A stretch of DNA of 64,000 bases from NCBI GenBank assembly GCA_951406725.2, contig OX597833.1, positions 1,798,001 to 1,862,000 on the forward strand. Reading direction: 5' to 3'. A program made the position numbers and the translations under genes. The stretch is from Octopus vulgaris (lineage: Eukaryota). Below the pieces are notes generated by a model. It ran no database searches. It worked only from the letters and a program-made list of their open reading frames with translations, and had not been told where the DNA came from. Below are positions 16,457 through 63,533 of this stretch, in pieces; within the stretch, counting starts at the first letter, position 1; each line of letters opens with the position of its first letter.

Positions 16457-16688
16457 GGGCGGCGAGCTGGCAGAAACGTTAGCGCGCCGGGCGAAATGCT
16501 TAGCGGTATTTCGTCTATCGTTACGTTCCGAGTTCAAATTCCGCCGAGGTCCACTTCGCCTTTCATCCTTTCGGGGTCGATAAATAAAGTACCAGTTTCG
16601 CACTGGAGTCGGTGTAATCGACTTAATCCGTTTGTCTGTCCTTGTTTGTCCCCTCTATGTTTAGCCCCTTGTGGGCAGTAAAGAAATA
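16457..16688 (+). mobile_element. Family C SINE monomer
   Basis: Full head and tail. TSD tatatt(a/c)ctagcaaaa at 16441-16456 and 16689-16704. Confidence 0.92.
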
Positions 16689-17402: not shown

Positions 17403-17659
17403 GTGCAGATTTATATGGTTTGTTTTATGTATGTACTCTTATGCATATAGCTACATATCTAGACATGCTCATATATATTTCACTGATCATAACTCGGAGG
17501 AAGATGAGTTTCTTCCTTAACTACATCTAGAAAGAATCTATTTACCTGTTCAGATGTTGTTGTCATTGTTCTTCGGTTGCGTTTGTGTGCGTACGTGCTG
17601 TTGTTGTTGTTGTTGTTGTTAAGCAGCAAGACGGGTAAGGGTGATTAGGTGATGGTCTA

Positions 17660-18080
17660 GGGCTTAGGGGGCGGGAGACCCCAAACCTTGGAAAAAAACA
17701 ACTTTGGTCGTCTTGTTGTAGTCGAGGGCTCTTCGTTGACGCCCGACACCACCGAGAGGTGGCGCTAGGGTTTAGAGGCGGGAGACCCCAGACCTTGGTA
17801 AAAAAACTTTGGTCGTCTTGTTGTAGTCGAGGGCTCTTCGTTGACGCCCAACACCACTGGGAGGTGGCCCTAGGGTTTAGAGGCGGGAGACCCCAGACCT
17901 TGGTAAAAAAACTTTGGTCGTCTTGTTGTAGTCGAGGGCTCTTCGTTGACGCCCAACACCACTGGGAGGTGGCCCTAGGGTTTAGAGGCGGGAGACCCCA
18001 GACCTTGGTAAAAAAACTTTGGTCGTCTTGTTGTAGTCGAGGGCTCTTCGTTGACGCCCGATACCACTGGGAGGTGGCCC
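17660..18080. repeat. GC-rich 105-bp minisatellite, ~4 copies
   Basis: Equivalent positions at 17679, 17786, 17891 and 17996. Units are nearly identical. Confidence 0.95.
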
Positions 18081-18769
18081 TCGAAGTCGCTGGAAATGAA
18101 GATCTCCACGTCCAAATTCTTGAACGGCTGCGTACCTGCTTGTGTATATGTATGCGAACGCACCTGCGCATGTGCGAGTGTAGTGAAGCGTTTTAATAAC
18201 ACTATCCGATTTCTGTTGTTTCAATCCATTCTCTTCAGAAATATCTAAATGTCTAAACATCTAAATATTTCTTTGGCGTCCACGATGACGTAATTGTTAG
18301 TATTATAGTTTTTCATGTCCTTTTAACGATATTGATTTATTTTATTTTAAGTCTTTTAGTGCATATTTCTGCTGTCCAGCATTAGACATAAAGAGTTTTT
18401 AGTTGAAAAACACTTCACATAAAAGCAGTAAATATATTCTGCTCTCGGCTATTGTCTAATGTAAACTAAATGCATTATAATTATTCTCCTTCGTTTTCTG
18501 TCTAGCCGAGCTAATTCTCCTAACTGTCAGCTGAGTATATTTATTATAGAATCTGTTGCATATATTGACACTTATTATTTTATTTTTGCCATTTAGTTTG
18601 GAACCAAGTATTAATTTAATGCGTCGAATATATTGCTTTATAGCTCTACCTTCATTAGGTAATGTTATTCTTTCGCTAGTTCACTCATACTGAAATAGTT
18701 GTTAGTTTGTCTATCGTTTTTTGTTATCTAGAATATTGCTTGCTTTCATTATTTAGATTCTGTATTTAG

Positions 18770-19700
18770 ATTGCAAGCTGGCTGAATCGTTAGCACACCG
18801 TGAAAAAATGCTTAGTGGTATTTCGTCTGTCGCTGAATTATGAGTTCAAATTCTGCTGCGATCGACTATGCTTTTCATCCTTTCGGGGTCGATCAGATAA
18901 ATACCATTTGAGCACTGTAGTCGATATGACCGACTTACCCCTCCCCTAAAATTTCAGGCCTTGCGCCTATAGTAGAAACGATTACTGGACTTCATAAGAT
19001 GGCGAGTAAGCAGAATCGTTAGCAACCTGGACAAAATGTTTATAAACATTTTATCCGGCCTTTTGTTCTGGATATAAATTTCGCCGATGTCAATTTTGTC
19101 TTTTATACTTTTGGGATCTTTAAAAGAAGTATCTATTGCAAACTGAAGTCGATGTAATCGACTAGCCCCTTTTTCAACATTTTACCCGTCGTTACATTTT
19201 AGATTCAAATACCGCCAAGGTCGACTTTGCCTTTCATCCTTTCAGGGTCGATCAAATAAGTACCAGTTGAGCACTGACCCTATGCCAAAATTTGACACTG
19301 TTGTTTGGACTCTGTAAGGTGAGGAGTCGGTAGAGTCATAAAATGCGCCGGAAAAAATGCTGTGTGATATTCCTACCGGTTCATTTCGTCCTCAGTTCAA
19401 TTACTACTGTGGGTGATGTTGCCTTTGTTCCTTTCGGGGGAAATACTTGAGTCGACAATATACCTGATCTCCCTTCCTTCTAAAATCCTCATTTGGCTTC
19501 TGTAAGGCGGTGATTTGACAGAAATATTAGGGTAGCGGGAAAAGCTGCCGTGCGATATTACATGGACTCCATTACTCAAATGGTAGTCATTTTATCGAAC
19601 TCGAATGGATGAAAGGCAAAGTCGAGGCCAATGGAATTTGAACTATAATCGAAATGCCGGAAGAAATGCTACTCAGCATTTTGTCCAACGCCTTAGATGA
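18770..19700. mobile_element. Cluster of old, degenerate family C-related SINEs (alternative tail aaatttcaggccttg.gcctatagtagaaa)
   Basis: Several diverged heads and tttcatcctttcggggtcga domains, mostly on + with the last on -. Confidence 0.7.
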
Positions 19701-21184: not shown

Positions 21185-21396
21185 GTCCTTTCTACTATAG
21201 GCAGCAGGCTTAAAATTTGGGGGACGGAAGCTAGTCTATTACATGGACTCCATTACTCAACTGGTAGTCATTTTATCGAACTCGAATGGATGAAAGGCAA
21301 AGTCGAGGCCAATGGAATTTGAACTATAATCGAAATGCCGGAAGAAATGCTACTCAGCATTTTGTCCAACGCCTTAGATGATGATGAAATGATGAT

Positions 21397-23488: not shown

Positions 23489-24265
23489 TTATTTTTTTAT
23501 TACCCACAAGGGGCTAAACATAGAGTGGGACAAATAAGGACTGACAAAGGAGTTACGTCGATTATATCGACCCCATTGCGTAACTGGTACTTTATTTATT
23601 CGACTCCGAAAGGATGAAAGCAAAGTCGAACTCGGCGGAATTTGAACTTAGAACGTAACGGCAGACGAAATACCTATTTCTTTACGACCCACAAGGGGAT
23701 ACACACAGAAGGGACAGACAAACGGATTAAGTCGATTATATCGACCTCAGTGCGTAACTGGTACTTAATTTATCGACCCTGAAAGGATGAAAGGCAAAGT
23801 CGAACTCGGCGGAATTTGAACTTAGAACGTAACGGCAGACGAAATACCTATTTCTTTACTACCCACAAGGGGATACACACAGAAGGGACAAACAAGGACA
23901 GACAAACGGATTAAGTTGATTATATTGACCCCAGTGCGTAACTGGTAATTATTTAATCGACCACGAAAGGATGAAAGACAAAGTTGATCCCGGCGGAATT
24001 TGAACTCATAACGTAACGGCAGACGAAATACCTGTTTCTTTACTACCCACAAGAGGCTAAACAGAGAGAGGACAAACAAGGACAGACAAACGGATTAAGT
24101 CGATTATATCGACCTCAGTACGTAACTGCTACTTAATTTATCAACCTCCGAAAAGATGAAAGGCAAAGTCGACCTCGGCGGAATTTGAACTCAGAACGTA
24201 ACGGCAGACGAAATACGGTTACGCATTTCGCCCGGCGTTCTAACGATTGTGCCAGCTCACCGCCT
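23489..24265 (-). mobile_element. Family C SINE tetramer
   Basis: One head plus four bodies. Degenerate TSD tgtatagtta(t/c)aaat(a/g)tatc at 23469-23488 and 24266-24285. Confidence 0.88.
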
Positions 24266-25225
24266 TGTATAGTTACAAATGTATCGTACACCATTCAAAC
24301 AACACGAAATACCATCCTATTTAGATGAGAGGAGGCGGAGAAAACGGAGGAGCTGGATGAGAGAATACAGAAGAACACGGAGAAGAAATCAGTGGAGAAC
24401 GAGAAGGAGGTGGTAAGGCAAATATACAAATATTCATCTCCTCGTATTTCGTATACATTCGATTCAGTGAAACACAATAGACAAGGGGATCTATCTGCTA
24501 TCAACAACTCGTGGTTTTTAGATGAGATTAGCAATCACGTTATGAGGTTTGCATTAACAACGATGCATGTATTTATATAGCACGACGATAACGAAACCAA
24601 TAGAACGACATGAGTGAGTTAGTTATTTTATTCAATGTTACCAATGGACTGGAGCTTCTTATTTTGTCGCTGACATATATGATTAGATATGTGACAGGTG
24701 ATTTGGGACATATCGACTGAATGTAATGGACGCTGAATTGAAACGTGTAGGATAACATAACAAGTAATTTCTATTGATTAATGGCAGCGAGTATTACGAG
24801 TGATAGGCTCGGCTGTCAAATTGGGCAGAAAATATATGTGCTTCTATGTACACATGCGTACATACTTAGATACATACATATATACATACATACATATATA
24901 CATACATAAACATGTATATGATATATACATGTCGTTGTAAATATGTGTGTGTGTGTGTGTATGCGTTGTGTGTGTGTGTATAAGCACACAAACATACATA
25001 CGCACAGAGATGTGGACGACCATACGCACACATTTGTACATGCGTAAGCTATTGGGTCCTGTGTGAGTGTGTATATACACATACACACACACATATATAT
25101 ATTATATATATATATATATTTATGTATATATATATATATATATGCTGTTTTCATATGTATGCATATATCTGTGTGTATATACATATGTATATGTATATAT
25201 ACGTATATATATATCCATATAATAC

Positions 25226-27269: not shown

Positions 27270-28280
27270 GCTTGCAAGCTATCAGAATCGTTACAACACC
27301 AGACAAAAGAATTAGCGGAAATTTTCCCGACGTTACGTTCTGAGATGAATTGCTGTCGCGGTTGACTTTACCATTCAACCGTTCAGGGTCGGTAAATTAA
27401 GTACCATTTGAGCACTGGGGTCGATGTAATCGACTTAGCCGTTCCTTCGACATTGCTGGTCTTGTGCCAACATTTGAATCCAACGTCTCGTTTATACCAT
27501 TTGTTGTAAATAATGTTTCTTATAGAAATATAAACTGTACTTCATTAAATAATTCATTTCAATTAAAATCCTAAAGTTCAATTGTGCTTTACCCGCTTTT
27601 ACTAAATGTTTTCGTACATAGCGAGTATTACGTATTCAGGGCATAAAACGATGTATCCTGTTCTAGTATTATCAGAAGTAATATCTGAGGGCAGTGAACT
27701 GGCAGAGTCGTTAGTAGGCTCGACAAAATGGTTGGCGGTATTTCGGCCGTCGTTACGTTCTGAGGTCAAATTCCATAGAGGTTGACTTTGACTTTCATTC
27801 TTTCGGGGTCGATAAATTAAGTACCGGCTGCGTACTGGGGTCGATCTGATCAACTGGCTGCTTCCCAAAAATTTTGGGCCTTGAGTAGAAAAAAAGTGTT
27901 ACTAGTAGGCTCGACGAAATGCTTGGCGGTATTTCGGCCGTCGCTACGGCCTGAGGTCAAGCTCCATCGCGGTTGACTTTGACTTTCATTCTTTCGGGGT
28001 CGATAAATTAAGTACCGGTTGCGTACTGGCCCGTCCCCCAAAATTTCGGGCCTTGTGTTTTGAGTAGAAAAAGAAAAAGAGTCGCTTGTAGGCCGGACGA
28101 AATACTTGGCGCTATTTCGTGCGTCGCTACGATCTGTGATCAAATTCCACCGTGGTTGACTTTGCCTTTGATATTTTCGTGGTCGACAAATTAAGTACCA
28201 GTGATAAACTCTCTGGTCGCTGAAATCGACTTTTTCTCTTCCCTATAATTTTAGATCCTATATATCTATAGTAAAAAGCA
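27270..28280 (+). mobile_element. Four degenerate family C-related SINEs (27270-27480 and three in tandem at 27688-28280)
   Basis: Repeated ggtatttcggccgtcg..ttcggggtcgataaattaagtacc with aaaatt..ggccttg tails. Confidence 0.7.
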
Positions 28281-46319: not shown

Positions 46320-46697
46320 ATATTGACCAAGGTTACCGTGGTCTTTTTCGTAGACTTTTCTTCCCACGGATAAACCTTACTTGCTTTCCCCTTTACACCA
46401 TACATCATAACACTGTGATACACGATCCCTATTGATCGTTTTTTTCCCCTCTTCCCCTTTTTCCCCTTTTCTTCTTTTTTTTCATTTCTCTTTTCTTTTG
46501 TTCCTTTTCCTTTTCTTCTTTTTTTATTTTTTGTTCTTTTTTTCCCTTTTACGATCTCTTTTGATCGAAAACCTACGCCACGTTTTTTTTTGTTTCTTTT
46601 GTTTTTTGTTTTTTGTTTTTTTCATCCCCAAAAGAAAAGCTCTACCTTGTAACTTGTCCCATCTGTGTGCAACCCTGTGTGGCCAATAAAGAAACGT
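46320..46697 (+). mobile_element. Tx1/L1-clade LINE 3' UTR fragment flanked by (TCTA)n
   Basis: Homologous to the 3' UTRs at 49192-49500(-) and 51760-52010. TCTA array at 46000-46310 upstream and tatctatcta downstream. Confidence 0.8.
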
Positions 46698-49191: not shown

Positions 49192-50522
49192 TATGTTTCT
49201 TTATTAGCCACACAGGGCTGCACACAGATAGAACAAATTACAAGGTAGAGCTTTTCTTTTGAAGGTTTAAAAAAAAAAAAAAATAAAAAAAAAGTGGGGG
49301 TTTCGATCAAAAGGGATCGTAAAAGGAGAGAAAGAGGACAAAAAAAGGGGGGTTAAAAAAAGGGGGAGAGGAAAAAAAAATTGATCAATAGGGATCGTTA
49401 TCACAGAAATGTCAATATGAAGTGTAAAGGGGAGGACAGGTGAGGTTTACCCGTGGAAAGAAAAGCCTACGGAAAAGACCACGGTAACCTCGGTCAATGA
49501 AGTCACTTTTTATATTTCTTTTTTTTTTTTTTGCAAATAAGCAACTCTCTGTATTAATTTTTATGGTTCATAGAATCATAGCTCAAGGTGGCTTCGTCAT
49601 TCATACGTGCCATCCTTGCTACATTCACCCATCTTTTTTTAAAACATTCACTAGACAAAACTTGCCTCTCTACTCTCACTTTCCTCTTCAAGTGGTACTT
49701 GAAGAAGTTGATGAGAGATTGACCAGAGAGGAAAGTGTTTGTCTCTAATCCTTTCAGACGCGTCCACCAGATACATTCTTTCGCCATAGCCACAAGGATG
49801 ATAAAAATAGCTCTTCCTTCCCGTTTGAAGGAAGGAGGCGTGACAATATTGACGATAGACTCGGCTGATAAACCGACTCGTCCCACACGTGACAGCAGTT
49901 GTTCGACATAAGCCCACAGGTGGGAAATTGTTGGACACTGAACGAGTGCGTGCAGAACGGTTTCGTCGCTCTGCCCGCATCTCGGGCAGGTCGGCCCCGT
50001 GTTTCTCGAGCCATGCCTATAGAGCTTATCCCGAACGGGTAGCGCTTCTCGGTAGCACCGCCAGGCCAGGATCTCTGGAAGTTGTCCATAGGTCCCGGGC
50101 CGAAAGTCGTCCTGAAACAGGCGGGTCAGGTATTCCTCGTCGACGTCCAGGTTCGCCCCGAGCTCGTCGTCGTACCTCCCCTCCACTAATCCCCTATAGA
50201 ATGCTTTGGTTGTGTTGAAGTCACTCAAGGTCGACCCGGGACGGCAGAGTTGCTTGAGAGCAACGCGAACGCCTCTTTTGATCCACGACTGTAGTTCGGT
50301 CATGGAGACGAGTTGCATTGCGCGACCACACCTGTTCACTCGGCCGGAGATGTCTCTCAGCGCGTGTCTGCGCATCATCAACCACGGCATCCCCAGCCCT
50401 CCTCGGGTGTTGACAGCAAATGGATCATGACCATCGGGACGCATCCTTTCCACAAGAAGCGGAAGAGGATGCGTTCTAGTTTGGTGATGGTAGGGTCGGG
50501 ACAAGGTACGACGGTCAGGCGG
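49192..50522 (-). mobile_element. 5'-truncated Tx1/L1-clade LINE inside (GATA)n/(TCTA)n
   Basis: ORF2 C-terminus plus 3' UTR. GATA arrays on both sides (48920-49192, 50526-50600). Confidence 0.88.
49554..50504 (-). CDS. Tx1/L1-type ORF2 C-terminal fragment (zf-RVT), probably with internal deletions
   Basis: GGLGMP, LAWRCYREALPVRDKL and CPRCGQSDETVLHALVQCP (CCHC). Confidence 0.8.
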   Translation of the reverse strand: MSRPYHHQTRTHPLPLLVERMRPDGHDPFAVNTRGGLGMPWLMMRRHALRDISGRVNRCGRAMQLVSMTELQSWIKRGVRVALKQLCRPGSTLSDFNTTKAFYRGLVEGRYDDELGANLDVDEEYLTRLFQDDFRPGTYGQLPEILAWRCYREALPVRDKLYRHGSRNTGPTCPRCGQSDETVLHALVQCPTISHLWAYVEQLLSRVGRVGLSAESIVNIVTPPSFKREGRAIFIILVAMAKECIWWTRLKGLETNTFLSGQSLINFFKYHLKRKVRVERQVLSSECFKKRWVNVARMARMNDEATLSYDSMNHKN

Positions 50523-50525
50523 TAG

Positions 50526-50850: not shown

Positions 50851-51156
50851 CGTGCTATATATGTGTGTGTATTAAGAATGAGTAGTACCTGCATTTCAAA
50901 GGTGCAGCTTCGACACACTCTGCATCACCCTGAATCTCCCTGAGAATTACACTACACGTGTCTGCGGAGTGCTCAGCCATTTGCACAATAATTTCATGGA
51001 TAGGCTGTTCTGGTGATTGGATCAACAGGAACCCCCGTCGCCTCCTTTATTAATTAAATTGAGCCGCTTGAAACGGCCGTAATTCCCTGAGCAGGCTGTT
51101 CCGCTGACTGGATCAACTGGATCTCCCGATGTCGTAACTGACAGAGTGCCTCTATC

Positions 51157-52139
<983 letters not shown>

Positions 52140-52161: not shown

Positions 52162-52302
52162 CTCCTCTTTCTCTCCTTTTACGATCCCTTTTGATCGAAA
52201 CTCCCCCTTCCTTTTTTTTTTTTTTTTAAACCTTCAAAGTAAAAGCTCTACCTTGTAATTTGTTCTATCTGTGTGCAGCCCTGTGTGGCTAATAAAGAAA
52301 CA

Positions 52303-54236: not shown

Positions 54237-55967
54237 AGAGTTACCGCTATGACCGATAACTCTTATATTTAAGTATAAATTTGTATTGTCACCCTGGTTT
54301 TTTATGTGCTAAACCACTTGGTGTTAAACTGATGGTATTATTAAATTAATATCTAATTTTTCACCCTCATTTATGTATATATATATCTTACTCGTGTCTG
54401 CGCCCACGCTAGGGTACCGCCTCAAATAATTTTAGTTGATGTAATCTGCCCAAGTATTTACATTTTGTTATAAGATCCTTATACTTATTCCGTCGGAATT
54501 TTTGCCGAATGGCTAAGTCACGAAGACGTTAACTGACCAACACCGGTCGTCAGGTGGTGAAGGGGACAGATATAGAGATAAAGACATATTCACACACATT
54601 CACACGCACACACACATATATATATATATTTGTGTGTGTGTGTGTATGCATGTATATATAAAACTATATATATGGATGCGTACACATAAACAGTAATGGG
54701 CTTCGCACTTATGTCCTAATGTCACGCACAATACGAGTGCAAGTTTATCCACACACATGTAGACAACATGCAAAGATATTAGCATTCATCAACCAATTTA
54801 GGTAACCAAAATCTGTAAATGCTCTCTTTTTTGCCTTAAACCAGTATCACCCGAGATCCCTATGAACCCTGGTGGGGAATGACACATAAGATTTTACATA
54901 TCTATACATAATTCTTTAAAACATAATAAAAATATTCTATCGGTCTCTCTTGCCGAACCGCTAAGTGACGGGGACGTAAACACACCAGCATCTGTTGTCA
55001 AGCGATGTTGAGGGGACAAACACAGACACACAAACATATACATATATGCATATATATAAGTACCTTTCATAGTTTATATATATATATATACCTTTCATAT
55101 GTGTGTGTGTGTGTGTGTGTTTGTGTGTGTATTATGTCAGGTCACTTTCGAGTGCTACTGGTAACATGTAACCCAGTATAATCTGTTGCATGGTCGGGTC
55201 GTCGTCGACTAAACCGGCAACCCCACCAAAATATTAGATTTTTTAAACATCGGATGGCTGCGAGAAAACGCAGAAAAATAAATAGGGATGAAAGGGAGAT
55301 AATCTTATTCAGAGAAATTAAAATTCTGAAGAGCTCTCATCAAGTCCAGCGAACGTAAAGAAATTAGAATATATTGTTACTATTTATAGCAGGTGAATCA
55401 TTCTTTTAGTGGCTATTCCTACTTTGGAGGAGGATGCTCAATGTAAATAGAAAACCTTTAACTATAATATCAATTTTATTAAATAGAAGCTAAGCAACGG
55501 CCCTTAAATATCAATGTGTTCTCCTTTCGTTTCAAGACGCCATGCTGCGATGCTTATATAAGAAGCATTTATTGTTTGTCCTACAAAATACCAGCAAAGA
55601 ATGTCAATCAAAAAAGCGACGATGGAATGACAGAATCTTCCTCGAAATCTCCTTTACGCAGAAAATCCTTGAGAATCTTAGGAAATTTTGAAGTAGCGGG
55701 ATGTTACATATAACAGCTTTATCTAAACCAACATGGTTGTTGAATAATGAAAAGCCAGTGGAATGTAAATTATTGAGCCGTCGGCTAAATGAATTAGAAA
55801 TATAACTGAATCTTACAATGTAGCGACAAAAATTTGAAACACCTAAGATAATTGAGTGTACAGGTGGACGTACTAAATTAGTATCTGCTTCATATTTTTT
55901 TTCTTACTTTTATCTGGACCTCGGGGGCTTCTGGAAGTGTGGGACGTATCGGTAACCATGCGGTAAA

Positions 55968-56565
55968 AGGCGGCGAGCTGGCAGAAACGTTAGCACGCCG
56001 GGCGAAATACTTGGCGGTATTTCGTCTGCGTTACGTTGTGAGTTCAAATTCCGCCGAGGTCGACTTTGCCTTTCATCCTTCCGGGGTCGATAAATTAAGT
56101 ACCAGTTACGCACTTGGGTCGATGTAATCGACTTAATACCTATGTCTGTCCTTGTTTGTCCCCTCTGTGTTTGGCCCCTTGTGGGTAGTAAAGAAATAGA
56201 TATTTCGTCAGCCGTTAAGTTCTGAGTTCAAATTCCGCCGAGGTCGACTTTGCCTTTCATCCTTTCGGGTCGATTAAACAAGTACCAGTTACGCACTGGG
56301 GTCGATGTAATCGACTTAATACCTATGTCTGTCATTGTTTGTCCCCTCTGTGTTTGGCCCCTTGTGGGTAGCAAAGAAATAGATATTTCGTCAGTCGCTA
56401 CGTTCTGAGTTCAAATTCCGCCGAGGTCGACTTTGCCTTTCATCCTTTCGGGGTCGATAAATTAAGTACCAGTTACGCACTGTGGTCGATGTAATCGACT
56501 TAATACCTATGTCTGTCCTAGTTTATCCCCTCTGTGTTTAGTCCCTTGTGGGTAATAAAGAAATA
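55968..56565 (+). mobile_element. Family C SINE trimer
   Basis: TSD ggtaaccatgcg at 55951-55962 and 56566-56577. Confidence 0.9.
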
Positions 56566-56819
56566 GGTAACCATGCGTCTGACTCACTTGGAGTTCCAGG
56601 TGATAGTGGTATTAATCTCTGCGCTGCATGAAGTATATTACTCAAGTAAACCATGGCGGGATTTTAACTCAGAACACAACGTTTCGGAGTAAATACCAAT
56701 AGGTATCCGGTCCCATATTCTCGCGGGTCTGCAGATCTACCTCACTCGATTGGTGCTTCTTTTTGTTTGTGAAACTCAAAACTATGAAAGGTATATATAT
56801 ATATATGCATATATGTATA

Positions 56820-57020
56820 TGTTTGTGTGTCTGTGTTTGTCCCCCCAACATCGCTTGACAACATATGCTGGTGTGTTTACGTCCCCGTCACTTAGCGGTT
56901 CGGCAAGAGGGACCGATAGAATAAGTAACTAGGTTGACAAAGAATGAGTCCTAGGGTCGATTTGCTCGACTAAAGCGGTGCTCCAGCATGGGTACAGTCA
57001 AATGGCTAAAACAAATAAAA
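56820..57020 (+). mobile_element. Family B SINE, 3' half
   Basis: gtttgtccccccaacatcgcttgacaac...cagtcaaatggctaaaac. Confidence 0.8.
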
Positions 57021-57041
57021 AATACAAACACACACACATAC

Positions 57042-57121
<80 letters not shown>

Positions 57122-58316
57122 ACACACGACACGCACAAGGACAGAAAGAGAAATTGATAAATAGACAATTGAATAAAACAGGGAAATTTTAGTCCCGGAC
57201 ATCCTTGTCCTGGATTGTTTCTAGAACATGTTAGTAGGGTGGAGAGGATCTCTGCGGTTTTGTGTATGCATTATTGGACCTAAAATGTTAGGTTCTGCAA
57301 TCGCAAGAGAGCTGACTTTCTGATGGCCGGGTGGTGAGCACAGAGGCCTCAGGCGCAGGCTCGGATGAAATGGAGCGGAATTACAGTAACCTCATGCATA
57401 AGGATTCTGGTATTTTGTATGAGCACTGGTTTGTGTTGGTCTTATTCGGTCACGAGTGGACAGCCATCGTATATACGAGCTTCGATATATCATTAGTTTC
57501 GATATATCATTACCCAGTGGAAAGGATATTCCGGTTGTCACAAGCTACCGACGTTTCCTAGTATGCGACATAATGTTACTTCTAGAACCAGTAATGCCGG
57601 AGACAGCTATTCTTCTATTCCTGAATTGAGTATGTCCATTCGGAACGCAAAAGATAGTAATCTACAATATCAATTCTTATGTTCAATGTACCAGTATTTT
57701 ATTTTGTTTAGGAAAGAATTCGTATGTAAAGAATCTGCATTACTTTCATTCCGGGCGATTACACTGGACACTAACGTAGAGTAAGGAATTATGTTGTTAA
57801 GAATCTATTTACTAATGATTATTATATCAGATTTTGGTAGCGTTAATAAGTTTAGATGTTGCTTTCGATTAAACTCTATCTTTTGTATCTTAACGGCCAC
57901 AATCTTCTCTTGTTTCGGCGTTAATGTCGTCGAAACAAGTGAAATCATTTTATATGTTGTAGTGATGGTGTTGGAGATTAAGCTACGGTAGGTTTGTTTA
58001 TCTATTTCTTAGAGATCTTTTGTTATCTCTGTCAGTACGAAAAATATTTTCTTTATTCCATTTGTTTTTCTTTTTAGATTTTAATTCTTACTATAGTTCA
58101 TGTGTTGACTGCTTCGATTTAATGTTTTATAGAATTCAGAAAAGACTTTTCTGCGTAGGTGAAGACATACTCCTATTTAAAGAAAATCGAACTCACATAC
58201 ATAAGGTGTGTGTTTTGTTTATACACCTCGAGCTATTTCTCATTCGTATTTGGACACTCCCATCTGTTTCATTCGGTGGACCGTACCAGACCCCCTGCCT
58301 ATTAATGTTGTGTATA

Positions 58317-58729
58317 AGGCGGCGAGCTGGCAGAATCGTTAGCACGCCGGGCGAAATGCGTCGCCGTATTTCGTCTGCCGTTACGTTCTGAGTTCAAATT
58401 CCGCCGAGGTCGACTTTGTCTTTCATCCTTTCGGGGTCGATAAAGTAAGTACCAGTTTTGTACTGGTGTCAATGTAATCAACTTAATCCGTTTGTATGTC
58501 CTTGTTTGTCCCCTCTATGTTTAGCCCCTGTGGGTAATAAAAAACAGGTATTTCGTCTGCCGTTACGTTCTGAGTTCAAATTCCGCCGAGGTCGACTTTA
58601 CCTTTCATCCTTTCGGGGTCGATTAAACAAGTACCAGTTACGCACTGGGGTCGATGTAATCGACTTAATACCTATGTCTGTCCTTGTCTGTCCCTTTGTG
58701 TTTAGCCCCTTGTGGGCAGTAAAGAAATA
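58317..58729 (+). mobile_element. Family C SINE dimer
   Basis: TSD tattaatgttgtgtat at 58300-58315 and 58730-58745. Confidence 0.92.
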
Positions 58730-59690
58730 TATTAATGTTGTGTATCTGACTTTCAAATCCGTGCCCGTGGTATATTTAAAACATTACATAGATTTACGTA
58801 AGACACATTTTAAATATTTCGCTACATTCAGAATAGTTGGAATAAAGGTGCACAGTGGCATAGTGGTGAGGATTCGCACTCACGATTTTCGGAAACTGAT
58901 TTCGATTCCTGGTTCGGCTAGTACGTTACTTTCACCATATTTCAACTCCACTCATCTGCAGATAAATTCCAGAAATACATGGTAAGTTTAGTCTGCGACT
59001 AACTGGTGTACTGTTCAGAGCGAATGTTGGAATCTCAGTCAATTTTTACCTTATAAAAACCAGGGTACTGTACGGGTTTATGAGGCCTATGGCTCAAGAG
59101 AGACCCAAGGCCCAGTAATCACAACTGAGGCAGCTAAGCATTTGAGAGGACACGCAATACGTTGCTTTTGACTCAAGCCATTTTTAGGTTAAGTTGAAAC
59201 TCTAACTCTATTTCTGGTTTAGTGTGATGGCAGTATTTCTTCCAACTCTTCGTGTTCTGAGTTCAAATTGCCCCGATGTCAACTTTGTTTTGCGTTCTTT
59301 CGCAATACGGAAAATATTGGTGATACAAAATATATTAACAAGGATATACTATATTTGTAACTTCATATTTCATTAAATTTTCTTGTCATTTCTGAATACT
59401 TTAAGTGGAGAGATGGCAGAATCTTCAGAGCATAGGAAAAATAAAGCCTTGTGGTATATGTTCCGGTTCTTTACGAGGGGTGTATGAAAAGTTTTGAACC
59501 TTCAAGACCTTTGAGCCTTGAAATCTTGTACCTTCATCAGAAGTCTTGTTCCACTTTTTTTTAGGCTCAAGACTTCTGACGAAAGTCTTTGTATATTAAG
59601 TTTTCTTAATCCGTCGTGGTTAACTTTGCCTCGCGTCATTTTCCAAAACACAACCCCCCACCCCACCCCAGAAATATATGGGCGTTTATC

Positions 59691-60994
59691 TGTTACTTTA
59701 TTACCCTCAAGGGGTTAAACATAGAGAGAATAAACAAGGTCAGACAAACGGATTGAATCGATTACATCGACCCCAGTGCGTAACTGGTACTTAATTCATC
59801 GACCCCGAAAGGATGAAAGGCAAAGTCGACCTCGGCGGAATTTGAACTCAGAACGTAGCGACAGACGAAATACCTATTTCTTTACAACCCACAAGGGGCT
59901 AAACACAGAGGGGAAAAACAAGGACAGACAAACGGATTAAGTCGATTACATCGACCCCAGTGCGTAACTGGTACGTAATTTATCGACCCCGAAAGGATGA
60001 AAGGCAAAGTCGAACTCGGCGGAATTTGAACTCAGATCGTAACGGCAGACGAAATACCTATTTCTTTACAACCCACAAAGGGCTAAACACAGAGGGGAAA
60101 AACAAGGACAGACAAACGGATTAAGTCGATTACATCGACCCCAGTGCGTAACTGGTACGTAATTTATCGACCCCGAAAGGATGAAAGGCAAAGTCGACCT
60201 CGGCGGAATTTGAACTCAGATCGTAACGGCAGACGAAATACCTATTTCTTTACAACCCACAAAGGGCTAAACACAGAGGGGAAAAACAAGGACAGACAAA
60301 CTGATTAAGTCGATTACATCGACCCCTGTGCGTAACTGGTACTTAATTTATCGATCCTGAAAGGATGAAAGGCGAAGTCGACCTCGGTGGAATTTGAACT
60401 CAGATCGTAACGGCAGACGAAATACCTATTTCTTTACAACCCACAAAGGGCTAAACACAGAGGTGAAAAACAAGGACAGACAAACGGATTAAGCCGATTA
60501 CATCGACTCCAGTACGTAACTGGTACGTAATTTATCGACCCCGAAAGGATGAAAGGCAAAGTCGACCTCGGCGGAATTTGAACTCAGATCGTAACGGCAG
60601 ACGAAATACCTATTTCTTTACAACCCACTAGGGGCTAAACATAGAGGGGACAAACAAGGACAGACAAACGGATTAAGTCGATTACATCGACCCCGAAAGG
60701 ATGAAAGGCAAAGTCGACTTCGGTGGAATTTGAACTCAGATCGTAACGGCAGACGAAATACCTATTTCTTTACAACCCACAAGGGGCTAAACATAGAGGG
60801 GACAAACAAGGACAGACAAACGGATTAAGTCGATTACATCGACCCCAGTGCGTAACTGGTACTTAATTTATCCACCCCGAAAGGATGAAAGGCAAAGTCG
60901 ACCTCGGCGGAATTTGAACTCAGAACGTAACGGCAGACGAAATACGGCTACGCATTTCGCCCGGGGTGCTAACGGTTCTGCCAGCTCGCCGCTT
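59691..60994 (-). mobile_element. Family C SINE heptamer
   Basis: One head plus seven ~183-bp bodies (one with an internal deletion). TSD tatgggcgtttatc at 59677-59690 and 60995-61008. Confidence 0.92.
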
Positions 60995-62209
60995 TATGGG
61001 CGTTTATCGTAACCAGAAGGGATTTATTGAACTAGCTGCGGAGCTTCTTCTTCGTTGCTCGTTGCAGTAGAAATAACGATAGCAATAACAACAACAACAA
61101 CAACAGCAACAACAACAACAACAACAACAAAGTCAAATTACTTTATAGACAGAAGCTGAAAACTTACGAATTTTTAACGAAATTCTTCTGTAAAAGTAGT
61201 TGGATAGTTTTGTCTTTTTCTCGTTTTCGTCATTGAAATAATTTAATATCCATGCTTCGATGACCTTGTGGCAAATACTCAAAAAGATCCTTTTTCTTGT
61301 TATTCATCATCTGCTTCTTTACTTTTTACGTTTTGTTCTTCTTTTCTTGCGTTTTGTTCTCTTTCTACTTTTGTTCCATTTTCCTTATTCTTTTGGTTTT
61401 CGCATTTTTCTCTATCCTTTTTTTTTTTTGCTCCGTCCATTTTCTTTATCTTCTTTGCCTCCATCATGTTCAAGGTTTTCTACATTTTCGTTTTCAAAGT
61501 TGTCTTTGTTATTTCCGTTTTCTTTTTATTTTTTACTTTATTTCTTCCATATTCTTCTTCTTCTTCTTCTTCTTCTTCTTCTTCTTCTTCTTCTTCCTCT
61601 TCTCCTCCCCTCTCTCCCCCATCCTCCTTCCTTTCTCATTCTCATTTTTTATCCTTTTGTTTAGTCTCGCTTCTTCCAACAAACAACGAATTCTCGCATG
61701 TACGTAACAAAATTATTTACAAATTTGTTTAAGACATCGTTGATATCGATATAATTATGTTTTCCAGCGAATAACGAAATTTCATTTCCGAACAATGCGT
61801 TGCATTAAATCGAGGCGAAATGGTTTTAGCGAAAATTGCAGAAACTGTAAATATCCGCCGGAAAAAAGAAGCAATTTTTTAGCCTTATCTTTTTCAAAAA
61901 TTTTCAGCGAAAATACATCGACTTTACTAGTTCGATATGTATTTGTGCGTTTGGTTTTCTATTCTACTCTCTTCCATATTTTCATTTTATTTCTAATTCC
62001 AGAATTATAGACCTTCCGAGTGTTAATTTTAGAATATTCAAAATATGTAAATGATATTGAAAAGTACGAATAAAAATTAAAATAAAATTACCGCGGTAAT
62101 TGTGTTCACACGTACGCATGCTTCGATGTGTATGTGTGTGAGTATGTGCGTGTATATGAGGGGGTGTAGGTCTTCGTAGTTCTTTCATTTCAGTTATTCG
62201 TGTCAAAAC

Positions 62210-62547
62210 AGAACTCCGCCGAGGTCGACTTGGCCTTTCATCCTTTCGGGGTCGATTAAATAAAGTACCAGTTTCGCACTGGGGTCGATGTAATCGACTT
62301 AATCCCTTTGTCTGTTCTTGTTTGTCCCCTCTGTGTTTAGCCCCTTATGGGTAGTAAAGAAATAGGTATTCGTCTGCCGCTACGTTCTGAGTTCAAATTC
62401 CGCCAAGGTCGACTTTGCCTTTCATCCTTTCGGGATCGATAAATAAAGTACCAGTTTTGCACTGGGGTCGATGTAATCGACTTAATCCCTTTGTTTGTCC
62501 TTGTTTGTCCCCTCTATGTTTAACCCCTTGTCGGCAGTAAAGAAATA
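62210..62547 (+). mobile_element. Family C SINE dimer, 5'-truncated
   Basis: No head. TSD tattcgtgtcaaaac at 62195-62209 and 62548-62562. Confidence 0.9.
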
Positions 62548-63533
62548 TATTCGTGTCAAAACGGCATTTCTTGTTTAACCAGAGGTCAGCCGAACTCAGC
62601 ATATCTATAATCATAGGCGTCCCAAAAGAAATTATCCTGTCTCCTACTCTTTTGCATTTCTTTTTTTTTTTTTTGTATTTCTCAAACTACAATCATTAAC
62701 AAGTCTTTTTTTTAAAGAATTAGTTTGTTAGTTAAAAGAAACTGGTTGTTATTGCAAGGGGATATAACGACCATCTAAGCCAGGATGTTGTATTAATAAC
62801 GTTCGTATTTTCTCTAATCTAATCCCGAACAATGTTCTTATAAGTACATCTAAGAAGGGGGAATGGAATAGATATATTTTTTAATTAATATAACGGCCAT
62901 CATGTGTATAATTGCTTATGGAATTATACCCCATGCCTCCCTAAAATTTTTGATTTTCAAATTGTTAATATTTCTGGTTCAAAATACAGCATTCATTGAG
63001 CTGGTCAAATAAAACCAGTACATGTTTCTCGCATCCACTGATTGGTTTAAAAATAAAATAAATTTCTATTTCTACAGCAAGTTCTGATTTTGAACGATCC
63101 TCAGGACACACGTGACCGGTTTCTGCCGGAATAGTTATACATATTATAATAAAACATTCGTCTTGCATAATAGCTCGTCATAAAGTTTCTAATTCTGGAA
63201 GGAATAATATCAGTTAAAGGATTTCTAGTTTAAGGAGGGTTTGTTGCATATGACTTTACAACGAGGTAGACTCAGCCAATGTCATACACATTTCTGAATT
63301 TTACAGCTGCCGAGAGCAGAAGAAACAACATTGACCTCTTTGGAGGTGTTCGACATTCAGTCTCATCAAGTGTCAATAAATCGATCGATATGTTTCTTGA
63401 TATACAAACAAAGACAGATGTATCACAAATATAAAAATCGATCGTGGAACACTTTTTTTTTTCCTGTGGTTCTAACATATTGATTTTTTTTTCAGGTTTA
63501 CATAATACTGTGCGTGATAATATTGTCTATGTA

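Follow-up and report, generated by a model that had tools for sequence, protein, structure and literature searches.

How does a SINE come to lie in head-to-tail arrays that are joined at a recurrent point and bounded by a single TSD? The question is posed by a seven-unit array in a stretch of 64,000 nt from Octopus vulgaris (GCA_951406725.2, contig OX597833.1, positions 1,798,001 to 1,862,000 of the forward strand), to which we refer as the window. A preliminary description of this DNA counted six multimers of one SINE, with 2, 4, 3, 2, 7 and 2 units, and all six are present with these unit numbers (Table 1). The single TSD of 12-20 bp that it gave to each array was likewise recovered; five of the six are exact and occur twice in the window, and that of the array at 23490 has mismatches.

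Table 1. Copies of the SINE, their TSDs and LINE fragments in the window
Feature	Position	Strand	Remarks
SINE monomer	8758..8975	+	more diverged
SINE array, head and 2 units	10594-11009	-	both units from one small sublineage (15 loci in the G000 genome)
TSD of the 10594 array	10579 and 11014		13 bp, exact
SINE monomer	16458..16688	+	with TSD
SINE array, head and 4 units	23490-24266	-	mixed subfamily
TSD of the 23490 array			20 bp, 2 mismatches
Second LINE 3′ fragment (zf-RVT)	49195..50525	-	related tail and (TATC)n
3′ fragment of young LINE (zf-RVT)	51083..52008	+	last ~50 nt align with SINE tail, then (TATC)n
SINE array, head and 3 units	55967-56565	+	mixed subfamily; GA junction variant
TSD of the 55967 array	55951 and 56566		12 bp, exact, begins GGTA
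SINE array, head and 2 units	58316-58729	+	units dissimilar
TSD of the 58316 array	58300 and 58730		16 bp, exact
SINE array, one 50-nt head and 7 units	59691-60994	-	units ~184 bp each
Seven-unit array, TSD, 3′ copy	59677..59690	-	14 bp, exact
Seven-unit array, unit 7	59691..59873	-	separate, more diverged copy from a different source
Seven-unit array, units 1-6	59874..60945	-
Seven-unit array, 5′ part of tRNA-like head	60946..60994	-	single copy; A-box-like motif and 5′ arm of long hairpin
Seven-unit array, TSD, 5′ copy	60995..61008	-	14 bp, exact
SINE dimer without head	62210-62547	+	starts at about unit position 32
TSD of the 62210 dimer	62195 and 62548		15 bp, exact, directly adjacent

The element and its LINE relatives

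Judged by its sequence features, the repeated element is a tRNA-derived SINE with a LINE-like 3′ tail and putative Pol III transcription. The monomer is a non-coding sequence of 233 nt, dispersed and high in copy number (an unselected 600 kb holds 47 elements), and it carries TSDs. Its majority sequence has an A-box-like motif at position 13 and a B-box-like motif at position 77. ARAGORN called no tRNA, and folding of the whole monomer was no better than that of shuffled sequences (z -1.29). The single head attributed earlier to each array corresponds to the first 50 nt only, which comprise the A box and the 5′ arm of the hairpin, whereas the B box is kept in every unit. As regards named octopus repeats in print, OR1 is listed as a CORE-SINE (PMC4824008), and four motifs of the SINE had no match in two supplements of that paper.

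The last ~50 nt of the SINE align with the 3′ end of a LINE that encodes endonuclease, reverse transcriptase (RT) and zf-RVT domains. A 1159-aa ORF at one locus (L422) carries PF03372, PF00078 and PF13966, that is, an endonuclease, an RT and a C-terminal zinc finger, and the label Tx1 for this LINE is suggested by its domain order and by microsatellite targeting. The young LINE fragment in the window is a relative of the tail donor, and as a partner it is a candidate only. As a site-specific partner it is not supported: 28 of 30 copies of the LINE with this tail end in (TATC)n, not in the SINE site, and a search of this one LINE family for the tail followed by the SINE site gave a single match, itself a SINE.

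A junction shared by the tail and an insertion target

The exact junction, queried as a 20-mer, occurs 39,269 times in the G000 genome (reversed control, 0). The restart had been described as fixed and as lying at the hairpin loop of the head. Its location agrees, and the fixed point is borne out by these counts except that a second junction exists, in which the tail is joined to head position 17-19 (23 cases). In 600 kb of DNA not chosen by pattern we found 30 monomers, 17 multimers and 24 junctions, so that chains make up about one third of SINE copies (17/47); a rough extrapolation gives ~10^5 junctions genome-wide. Most other samples were enriched by exact patterns, and adjacency counts from them are therefore not genome frequencies.

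The sequence at the junction is GGTAT, which is common to the 3′ tail and to the restart site, where it stands first. Of 153 junctions at loci not chosen by junction pattern, 144 read GG, whereas at head boundaries the corresponding base varies (G 147, C 64, A 46, T 13). Elements that end with a C unit are followed by GGTA in 44 of 134 cases and by NNTAT in 59 of 134, and in one sublineage GGTA follows the element at 13 of 15 loci. The SINE tail is thus preferentially followed by GGTA(T). Pairing of the tail with the restart site had been put forward as the basis of the junction. The complementarity is real, but at -3.6 kcal/mol, compared with -12.7 kcal/mol for the native hairpin arms, fold-back was rejected as the cause; the junction is better explained by the identity of GGTAT in tail and restart site.

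The restart site is also a genuine DNA insertion target, a point that the preliminary description had missed. A nested-insertion pattern, consisting of a unit start followed by a new full head, has 308 matches (control, 0), and inspection by eye of 29 distinct loci found an internal TSD and the old body downstream in ~21. Truncations at the 5′ end show some clustering at the restart, which is confounded by undetected head remnants and by alignment ends.

Circles, masters and local duplication

Loop cleavage and ligation, followed by rolling-circle reverse transcription of the resulting RNA circle (184 nt), had been considered for these arrays by analogy with retrozymes, whose short non-coding units likewise lie in head-to-tail arrays. 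The fixed junction and the restart at a hairpin loop would suit such a process, as would the near-identity of units within some arrays (differences below 4% in 26% of adjacent pairs). A retrozyme-like origin, however, implies identical units from one template and nothing from outside the circle. The head, which the circle would lack, is present in 214 of 249 arrays; neighbouring units differ in the two-base subfamily marker in 26 of 95 pairs, and units are mosaic in subfamily, family and age; and the homogeneous runs consist of nested variant subsets, not of a star pattern. The hammerhead core CTGANGA is absent from both strands of the doubled unit, as the preliminary description had noted, and Rfam returned, over positions 55500-63000, six miRNA-family matches below gathering scores and none on the SINE arrays; a ribozyme of undescribed type would escape both searches. 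Reads across the junction would not reveal a circle, because genomic chains contain it as well. With a single Pol III-type head, mosaic units and no hammerhead, the octopus arrays differ from retrozymes, and we regard the circular route as highly improbable; as the principal mechanism it is refuted by the mosaic structure.

In the seven-unit array, units 1-6 share variants in nested subsets, and their private junction occurs five times in the G000 genome, each time at this locus; the array was thus enlarged on the spot by duplication at the DNA level. Its unit 2 lacks 32 bp. Long arrays have 7, 14-15 and 17 units, and most chains have 2-4 dissimilar units; at least four tandem, homogenising units derived from part of a SINE, as in an sSat, are found in the long arrays only. 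Such later growth of long arrays is absent from the preliminary description. We also observed that arrays often combine units that were not copied from each other.

Local duplication being real in long arrays, all chains might have come from one or a few multimeric masters, or solely from DNA-level duplication with unequal crossover at the GGTAT repeat; unequal recombination has been proposed for clam arrays (PMC11481361). For the chains in general this is very unlikely. Rare variants are shared by both C units in just 2 of 24 two-unit cases, and position-specific variants shared between loci, the sign of a single master named in the preliminary description, amount to three weak alleles. Moreover, chains mix families, have unique last units and make use of the second junction, and the 62210 dimer cannot be derived by duplicating its truncated unit, since unit 2 carries sequence absent from unit 1.

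Mosaic chains and their assembly

The subfamily differences between neighbours fall short of random mixing, under which a fraction of 0.48 would be expected. At the level of families, adjacencies number 257 for C followed by C, 108 for C followed by D, 7 for C followed by E and 0 for D followed by C; where a C unit adjoins a D or E unit, it is thus always on the 5′ side. Approximately 40% of junctions look same-source.

Before the ages of the parts were compared, we excluded arrays lying less than 60-100 bp from the end of a locus, arrays that contain internal heads or an incomplete last unit (267 out of 717 clusters remained), and low-complexity TSDs. In 59 C-D1 chains head divergence is 0.077, the value of C monomers, compared with 0.102 in D1 monomers (p=0.009). 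In the same chains CpG decay rises from 0.072 (first unit) to 0.136 (last unit; p=1e-5), and in D1 monomers it is 0.160. The chains carry C-type head alleles, and a D-type unit start is rare in their first units (4/59 versus 29/34). Among outer TSDs with at least 10 of 12 matches, mismatches number 15/312 in chains, 32/552 in C elements and 20/192 in D1 monomers (p=0.02), and perfect TSDs 14/26 in chains versus 3/16 in D1 monomers (p=0.05). C-D chains, then, look young in head, C unit and outer TSD, and old in the last unit. Two further comparisons are less informative: markers for head-unit allele linkage are too weak to separate the first from the last unit, and very old last units offered too few cases for the TSD test, 13 in all, of which three (L193, L201 and L209) are classical nested loci.

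Template jumping by the partner RT had also been proposed, and in the following form it has become our leading explanation, although it is reached by inference and rivals remain. We tentatively suggest that most chains are each one mosaic cDNA, made by microhomology-guided template switching at GGTAT. The reading is favoured because head, C unit and outer TSD are young and the last unit is old, with no sibling found: of 1711 D-unit pairs, none has two rare variants in common, and two genome searches for siblings of last units, each scoring 40 of ~4,000 candidates, gave at best 90% identity with 3/13 and 4/15 shared sites. The tail of the SINE RNA would run on to GGTAT, and a LINE RT, presumably of L1/Tx1 type, on arriving at the internal GGTAT in one SINE RNA, would probably switch to the GGTAT tail of another. 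The switch may occur within one target-primed reverse transcription, through stalling at the hairpin or re-nicking of the new cDNA at the preferred site, and later duplication at the DNA level would produce the long homogeneous runs.

One-cDNA synthesis accounts for GGTA(T) after the tail, for the GG junctions, for the mosaic of subfamilies and families with its one-way order, and for the combination of a C-aged head, first unit and outer TSD with an old and unique last D unit. It also accommodates one sublineage that occurs with different partners at four loci (L175, L179, L181 and L185) and the 62210 dimer, whose 5′ truncation lies within unit 1 and directly adjoins the TSD, as would be expected of the multimeric template envisaged earlier. 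In vitro, L1 ORF2p forms concatemers by template jumping (PMC10830420). Several observations weigh against it. RNAs from many old, decayed D copies would be needed to initiate insertions, and D1 monomers with young TSDs are few (the three perfect cases above). The TSD age signal is modest (two previous forms of the test gave p=0.12 and 0.11), and TSD score is uncorrelated with the divergence of either unit. A TSD above threshold was found in only 2 of 21 headless multimers; a correlation of head with first-unit divergence, seen in 19 chains, was gone in 59; and the same-source junctions could be explained by local duplication without a switch. Finally, since insertion into DNA at the restart site is established, a fixed junction does not require a switch between RNAs.

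This last point leads to growth in place. Here reverse transcription would put a C copy into the GGTAT site of a SINE already present, the cDNA end would anneal to the resident head, the whole old head would be replaced seamlessly, and the outer TSD would be that of the old element. Its target is documented by the nested loci, and annealing of R1 cDNA to the upstream target, which yields precise junctions with target deletion, provides a precedent (PMC2718515). Decay in the last D units is on a par with that in resident D1 monomers, and these units are unique. D-type starts, furthermore, are found 4,400 times behind a C tail and 3,034 times behind a head motif, and the older unit type 470 and 545 times (the latter behind an intact head motif), for which growth in place is a simpler explanation than a single cDNA. 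We nevertheless consider it somewhat unlikely. The outer TSDs of chains look C-aged, not D-aged (p=0.02-0.05), and old heads and unit starts are not kept, although simple annealing at the TSD overhang would keep them. The seamless form would have to exceed the TSD form more than 50-fold, with 0 nested cases against 21 multimers in the unselected sample, and the 62210 dimer is left unexplained. A variant with seamless nesting and the old head retained was rejected, as heads and first-unit starts are C-type.

The nested loci could also have acted as precursors. A C copy would insert classically into an older SINE, Pol III would read from the inner head into the old body, and the composite RNA would retrotranspose as head-C-D with a new TSD. 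Such precursors exist (L172 among them) and would yield precisely this product, and read-through would account for the young head and TSD, the old last unit and the order of units. Four consecutive T occur nowhere in the consensus dimer, and at one CpG last units show a TTTT-creating change less often (6:21) than monomers do (18:14; p=0.016, found post hoc); pooled TTTT-creating changes, however, are not depleted (33:141 versus 41:155, p=0.70). By eye, a single outer TSD at L196, and likewise at L206, encloses part of a head, the start of a unit and a complete new copy. Against this, the excess of products over precursors predicts tens of siblings per chain, and none was found among the 40 candidates scored per search; the CpG ratio at junctions (553:764) equals the head-boundary baseline (17:24). 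We judge read-through to be distinctly unlikely as the general route.

Returning to the one-cDNA reading, it is possible, though far from certain, that a LINE RT, in the course of a single insertion, regularly joins RNAs from different SINE copies and families as one cDNA, using a fixed five-base match of the tail, with ~10^5 chimeric junctions as the outcome, and that a young SINE thereby remobilises old relatives and lends them its promoter. If so, template jumping would be a main route of SINE amplification in vivo.

Comparison with known systems

Every surviving explanation makes the SINE's own head both landing site and joint, an arrangement for which no description was found for any SINE in the literature searched. 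If the switch occurs within one insertion, the chains would be a genome-scale record of template jumping, an activity shown in vitro (PMC10830420), and also a route for shuffling of SINE modules and for seeding of satellites; if chains grow in place, they would allow homology-directed 5′ joining during target-primed reverse transcription to be tested in nature.

Close counterparts are the TSD-(SINE)n-TSD arrays of Scapharca broughtonii, where 3% of high-scoring SINEs lie in tandem or palindromic structures and 64 elements lie in arrays of 4-15 that are ascribed to unequal recombination (PMC11481361). There, too, one outer TSD encloses a first unit with a full tRNA head, later units are cut at one head position, and some arrays hold other families. 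The non-terminal units of the clam have cut tails, whereas octopus tails are complete, and the octopus is further distinguished by the proportion of elements in chains (about one third), by a junction that matches tail and target, and by the one-way order of families. Squamate sSats resemble the octopus arrays as tandem repeats of part of a tRNA SINE, with few to many units and greater uniformity in longer arrays (PMC10702118). They are ascribed to DNA-level duplication and fit only the secondary expansion of the long octopus arrays; the words TSD, target site, template and rolling do not occur in the main text of that paper.

SINEU-3 of crocodilians also has tandem copies, which arise by sequential insertion, and a target preference attributed to a Tx1-clade partner (Tx1-Mar); Kibi and Koshi are microsatellite-specific Tx1 families, like the octopus (TATC)n LINE (PMC4494074). 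SINEU-3 tandems, however, sandwich a TSD and target a Mariner element, whereas in the octopus the SINE targets its own head, and neither an internal TSD nor a second head is present at most junctions. In Drosophila rDNA, R1 stacks at a regenerated target, and annealing of R1 or R2 cDNA to the upstream target yields precise junctions, but R1 arrays consist of autonomous elements separated by a 14-bp TSD in the 28S gene (PMC2718515), unlike the octopus SINE. In template jumping by L1 ORF2p, finally, one cDNA continues on a second template to give a concatemer (PMC10830420); that reaction was observed in vitro, whereas the octopus jump would start from a fixed internal position and would have occurred on the scale of a genome.

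Arrays of family C in the window and genome

A monomer of the tRNA-derived SINE family C consists of a 50 nt head, which carries an A-box-like motif, and a 183 nt unit; a B-box-like motif is present in every unit. Its relatives, families D and E, have the first 118 unit bases in common with it and different tails. The six family C arrays of the preliminary description, with 2, 4, 3, 2, 7 and 2 units, are all present in the window, an AT-rich sequence with abundant microsatellites. Each had been described as bounded by a single target site duplication (TSD), and this holds: in five arrays a 12-16 bp duplication occurs exactly twice in the window, and that of the sixth carries 2 mismatches in 20 positions.

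The tail-to-restart junction between adjacent units had been considered fixed. A junction 20-mer occurs 39,269 times in the searched genome (2.8 Gb, 227 contigs) and its control 0 times, but a second junction type exists in which the tail is joined to head position 17-19 (23 cases). In 600 kb selected independently of the pattern there are 30 monomers, 17 multimers and 24 junctions, which extrapolates to roughly 110,000 junctions genome-wide from a sample in which small contigs and DNA near the window are overrepresented.

Coordinates of arrays, related elements and neighbouring repeats
Feature	Location	Strand	Remark
Focal 7-mer	window 59691-60994		
32-bp deletion between two internal GGGGTCGAT unit repeats	window 60610-60761		recurs at L015, L144, L157, L166
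Older related SINE copies	window 18773-19276, 27274-28202, 19557-19667, 21238-21348		69-84% identity; clustered, some mutually adjacent
LINE fragment, tail-related	window 51083-52008	+	alignment
LINE fragment, tail-related	window 49195-50525	-	alignment
Short LINE-type tail fragments, then (TATC)n	window 46645-46694, 52259-52300		also many loci (C-tail-only hits)
Minisatellites unrelated to the SINE	window 12432-12805, 17657-18081, 4989-5354		periods 100, 105, 117 bp
C element within antisense SINE copy	L094 1271-2051	+	at/near GGTAC-like site
C element within antisense SINE copy	L017 7274	+	at/near GGTAC-like site
Three successive heads, then four units	L212/L213 (G000:C1:194001253)		same 16-bp unit start between heads
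D-family chains	L066; L170:5321-6463; L304		full heads directly after D tails; tandem restarts at unit position 75, six times
D-tail end and flank	L342:1351-1610		flank may itself be repetitive, because its contig has about tenfold depth in run X5 (other material)

The restart site as an insertion target

The terminal GAAATA is followed by GGTA in 44 of 134 elements and by NNTAT in 59 of 134, and the match fades after about five bases. In one sublineage GGTA follows the tail at 13 of 15 loci, and there it often opens the TSD. The restart site's own first bases are GGTAT. Among loci chosen independently of the junction pattern, GG is found at 144 of 153 junctions; the same base at head boundaries varies (G 147, C 64, A 46, T 13). 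The restart site serves as a DNA insertion target. The pattern of a new full head at most 12 bases after a unit start gave 308 matches (control, 0), and about 21 of 29 distinct loci, judged by eye, have a nested structure of old head/tail, 13-20 bp duplication, new copy and old body. G precedes GTAT at 25 of 30 loci with the nested pattern. The proposed fold-back pairing of the tail at the restart exists but is weak, at -3.6 versus -12.7 kcal/mol for the native hairpin.

C insertions into antisense SINE copies at GGTAC-like sites agree with the GGTA preference. At L196 and L206, near a pattern match, one outer TSD surrounds part of a head, the start of a unit and a full new SINE copy, an arrangement suggesting that a nested precursor was copied or that a jump occurred after the 5′ end.

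Origin of the chains

Rolling-circle copying of circular SINE RNA, one of the mechanisms proposed in the preliminary description, is highly improbable. A head opens 214 of the 249 junction-bearing arrays, the unit has no hammerhead core and no relevant Rfam match, and copying from one template is contradicted by units of mixed subfamily and family. A two-base subfamily marker is unlike at 26 of 95 adjacent pairs, where random mixing predicts a fraction of 0.48, so that over half of the junctions join different sources and the remainder are an excess of same-source joints (p = 5e-5). Of 24 two-unit cases, 2 have rare variants that occur in both C units. In a pattern-enriched sample, a C unit stands before D in 108 cases and before E in 7, and D stands before a headless C unit in none; seven D-to-D contacts, six within one array, use other restart points.

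The 5′-truncated 62210 dimer had been read as fitting a multimeric template, and in our analysis it requires a multimeric cDNA; a TSD is detectable in only 2 of 21 headless multimers. Alternatively, chains might grow in place by insertion of a C copy into a resident older SINE, which we regard as somewhat unlikely. D-type starts occur 4,400 times after a C tail and 3,034 times after a head motif, and an older start type 470 and 545 times, respectively; such counts behind C tails are easier to picture as hits on residents than as reuse of old RNAs. The heads and TSDs of the chains, like the sibling comparison below, speak against a purely in-place or single-founder origin. In 59 chains joining C to D1, the younger D type, head divergence (0.077) equals that of C monomers, and D1 monomers are higher (0.102, p = 0.009). 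Head alleles are C-type at C frequencies and only 4 of 59 first units have a D-type start, indicating that the old head was not retained. TSD mismatch in the chains (0.048) is near that of C elements (0.058) and below that of D1 monomers (0.104, p = 0.02), counting only TSDs in which 10 or more of 12 positions match; the p-values obtained in two previous forms of the comparison were 0.12 and 0.11, and that of the first, with 8 chain TSDs, was 0.08. CpG decay rises significantly (p = 1e-5) from 0.072 in the first unit to 0.136 in the final one, where it resembles that of D1 monomers (0.160). When adjacent cores are compared within the 59 chains, divergence is higher in D than in C in 45 and lower in 8.

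Nesting followed by Pol III read-through, for which the odds appear poorer still, would convert nested precursors into a head-C-D product. The consensus dimer lacks T4, and a terminator test gave p = 0.016 at one CpG, but the pooled test gave p = 0.70 with a junction ratio at baseline. Precursors are also rare (0 nested versus 21 multimers in 664 kb), and sibling chains should then be plentiful. Among 1711 pairs of D units, 0 had two rare variants in common (null mean 1.4), and two genome searches for siblings, each scoring 40 of about 4,000 candidates, yielded nothing above 90% identity; shared sites did not exceed 3 of 13 in one search and 4 of 15 in the other. Within one sublineage of 15 loci, the partners are arranged in four different ways and one copy is nested. 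We therefore tentatively prefer a microhomology switch within a single insertion. More than one route is probably active.

Founding multimeric masters or DNA duplication alone are very doubtful sources of the chains. The private junction of the focal 7-mer occurs five times in the genome, always at this locus, its variants nest (units 1-6, 2-6, 3-6, 3/5/6 and 2/4), with unit 7 distinct at many positions. Together these features point to a short mosaic that would have been enlarged afterwards by local DNA duplication. Arrays of 14-17 units probably expanded locally in the same way. The long arrays L084, L089 and L108 (14-15, 17 and 8 units) are candidate incipient satellites.

A LINE with a related tail and known multimeric SINEs

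The last ~50 nt of the C unit align to the 3′ end of the tail-related LINE fragments in the window. A full LINE copy encodes endonuclease, RT and zf-RVT domains within 1159 aa, and its family is very young, with at least 150 matches of 96-100% identity at the protein level; in many of them the 1159-aa ORF2 is open (window and L392-L422). (TATC)n terminates 28 of 30 copies, and several matches are spaced by just a few kb, which gives a stacked appearance. A search for the LINE tail before the SINE's target site gave 1 match, itself a SINE. The young (TATC)n LINE is a relative of the tail donor and, as partner, a candidate at most; we infer the Tx1 label for the tail-related LINE. C-tail-only fragments before (TATC)n are probably 5′-truncated copies of sister LINE families.

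Such chains are unmentioned in passages of two octopus repeat papers (PMC13282606, PMC12988792), and no description of self-targeted mosaic SINE chains was found in the literature searched, which lay outside subscription journals and Repbase. Excerpts on other systems describe SINE-derived satellites in squamates (PMC10702118), tandem SINEU-3 copies with a target preference driven by Tx1 (PMC4494074), stacked R1 insertions with annealing to upstream target (PMC2718515) and template jumping by L1 in vitro (PMC10830420). The octopus chains resemble the TSD-(SINE)n-TSD arrays of a clam, which likewise have a single full head and an outer TSD and are attributed there to unequal recombination (PMC11481361). 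The chains are real, abundant and not the product of rolling-circle copying; they represent SINE multimers of a known type in a new variant, whose mechanism is testable.
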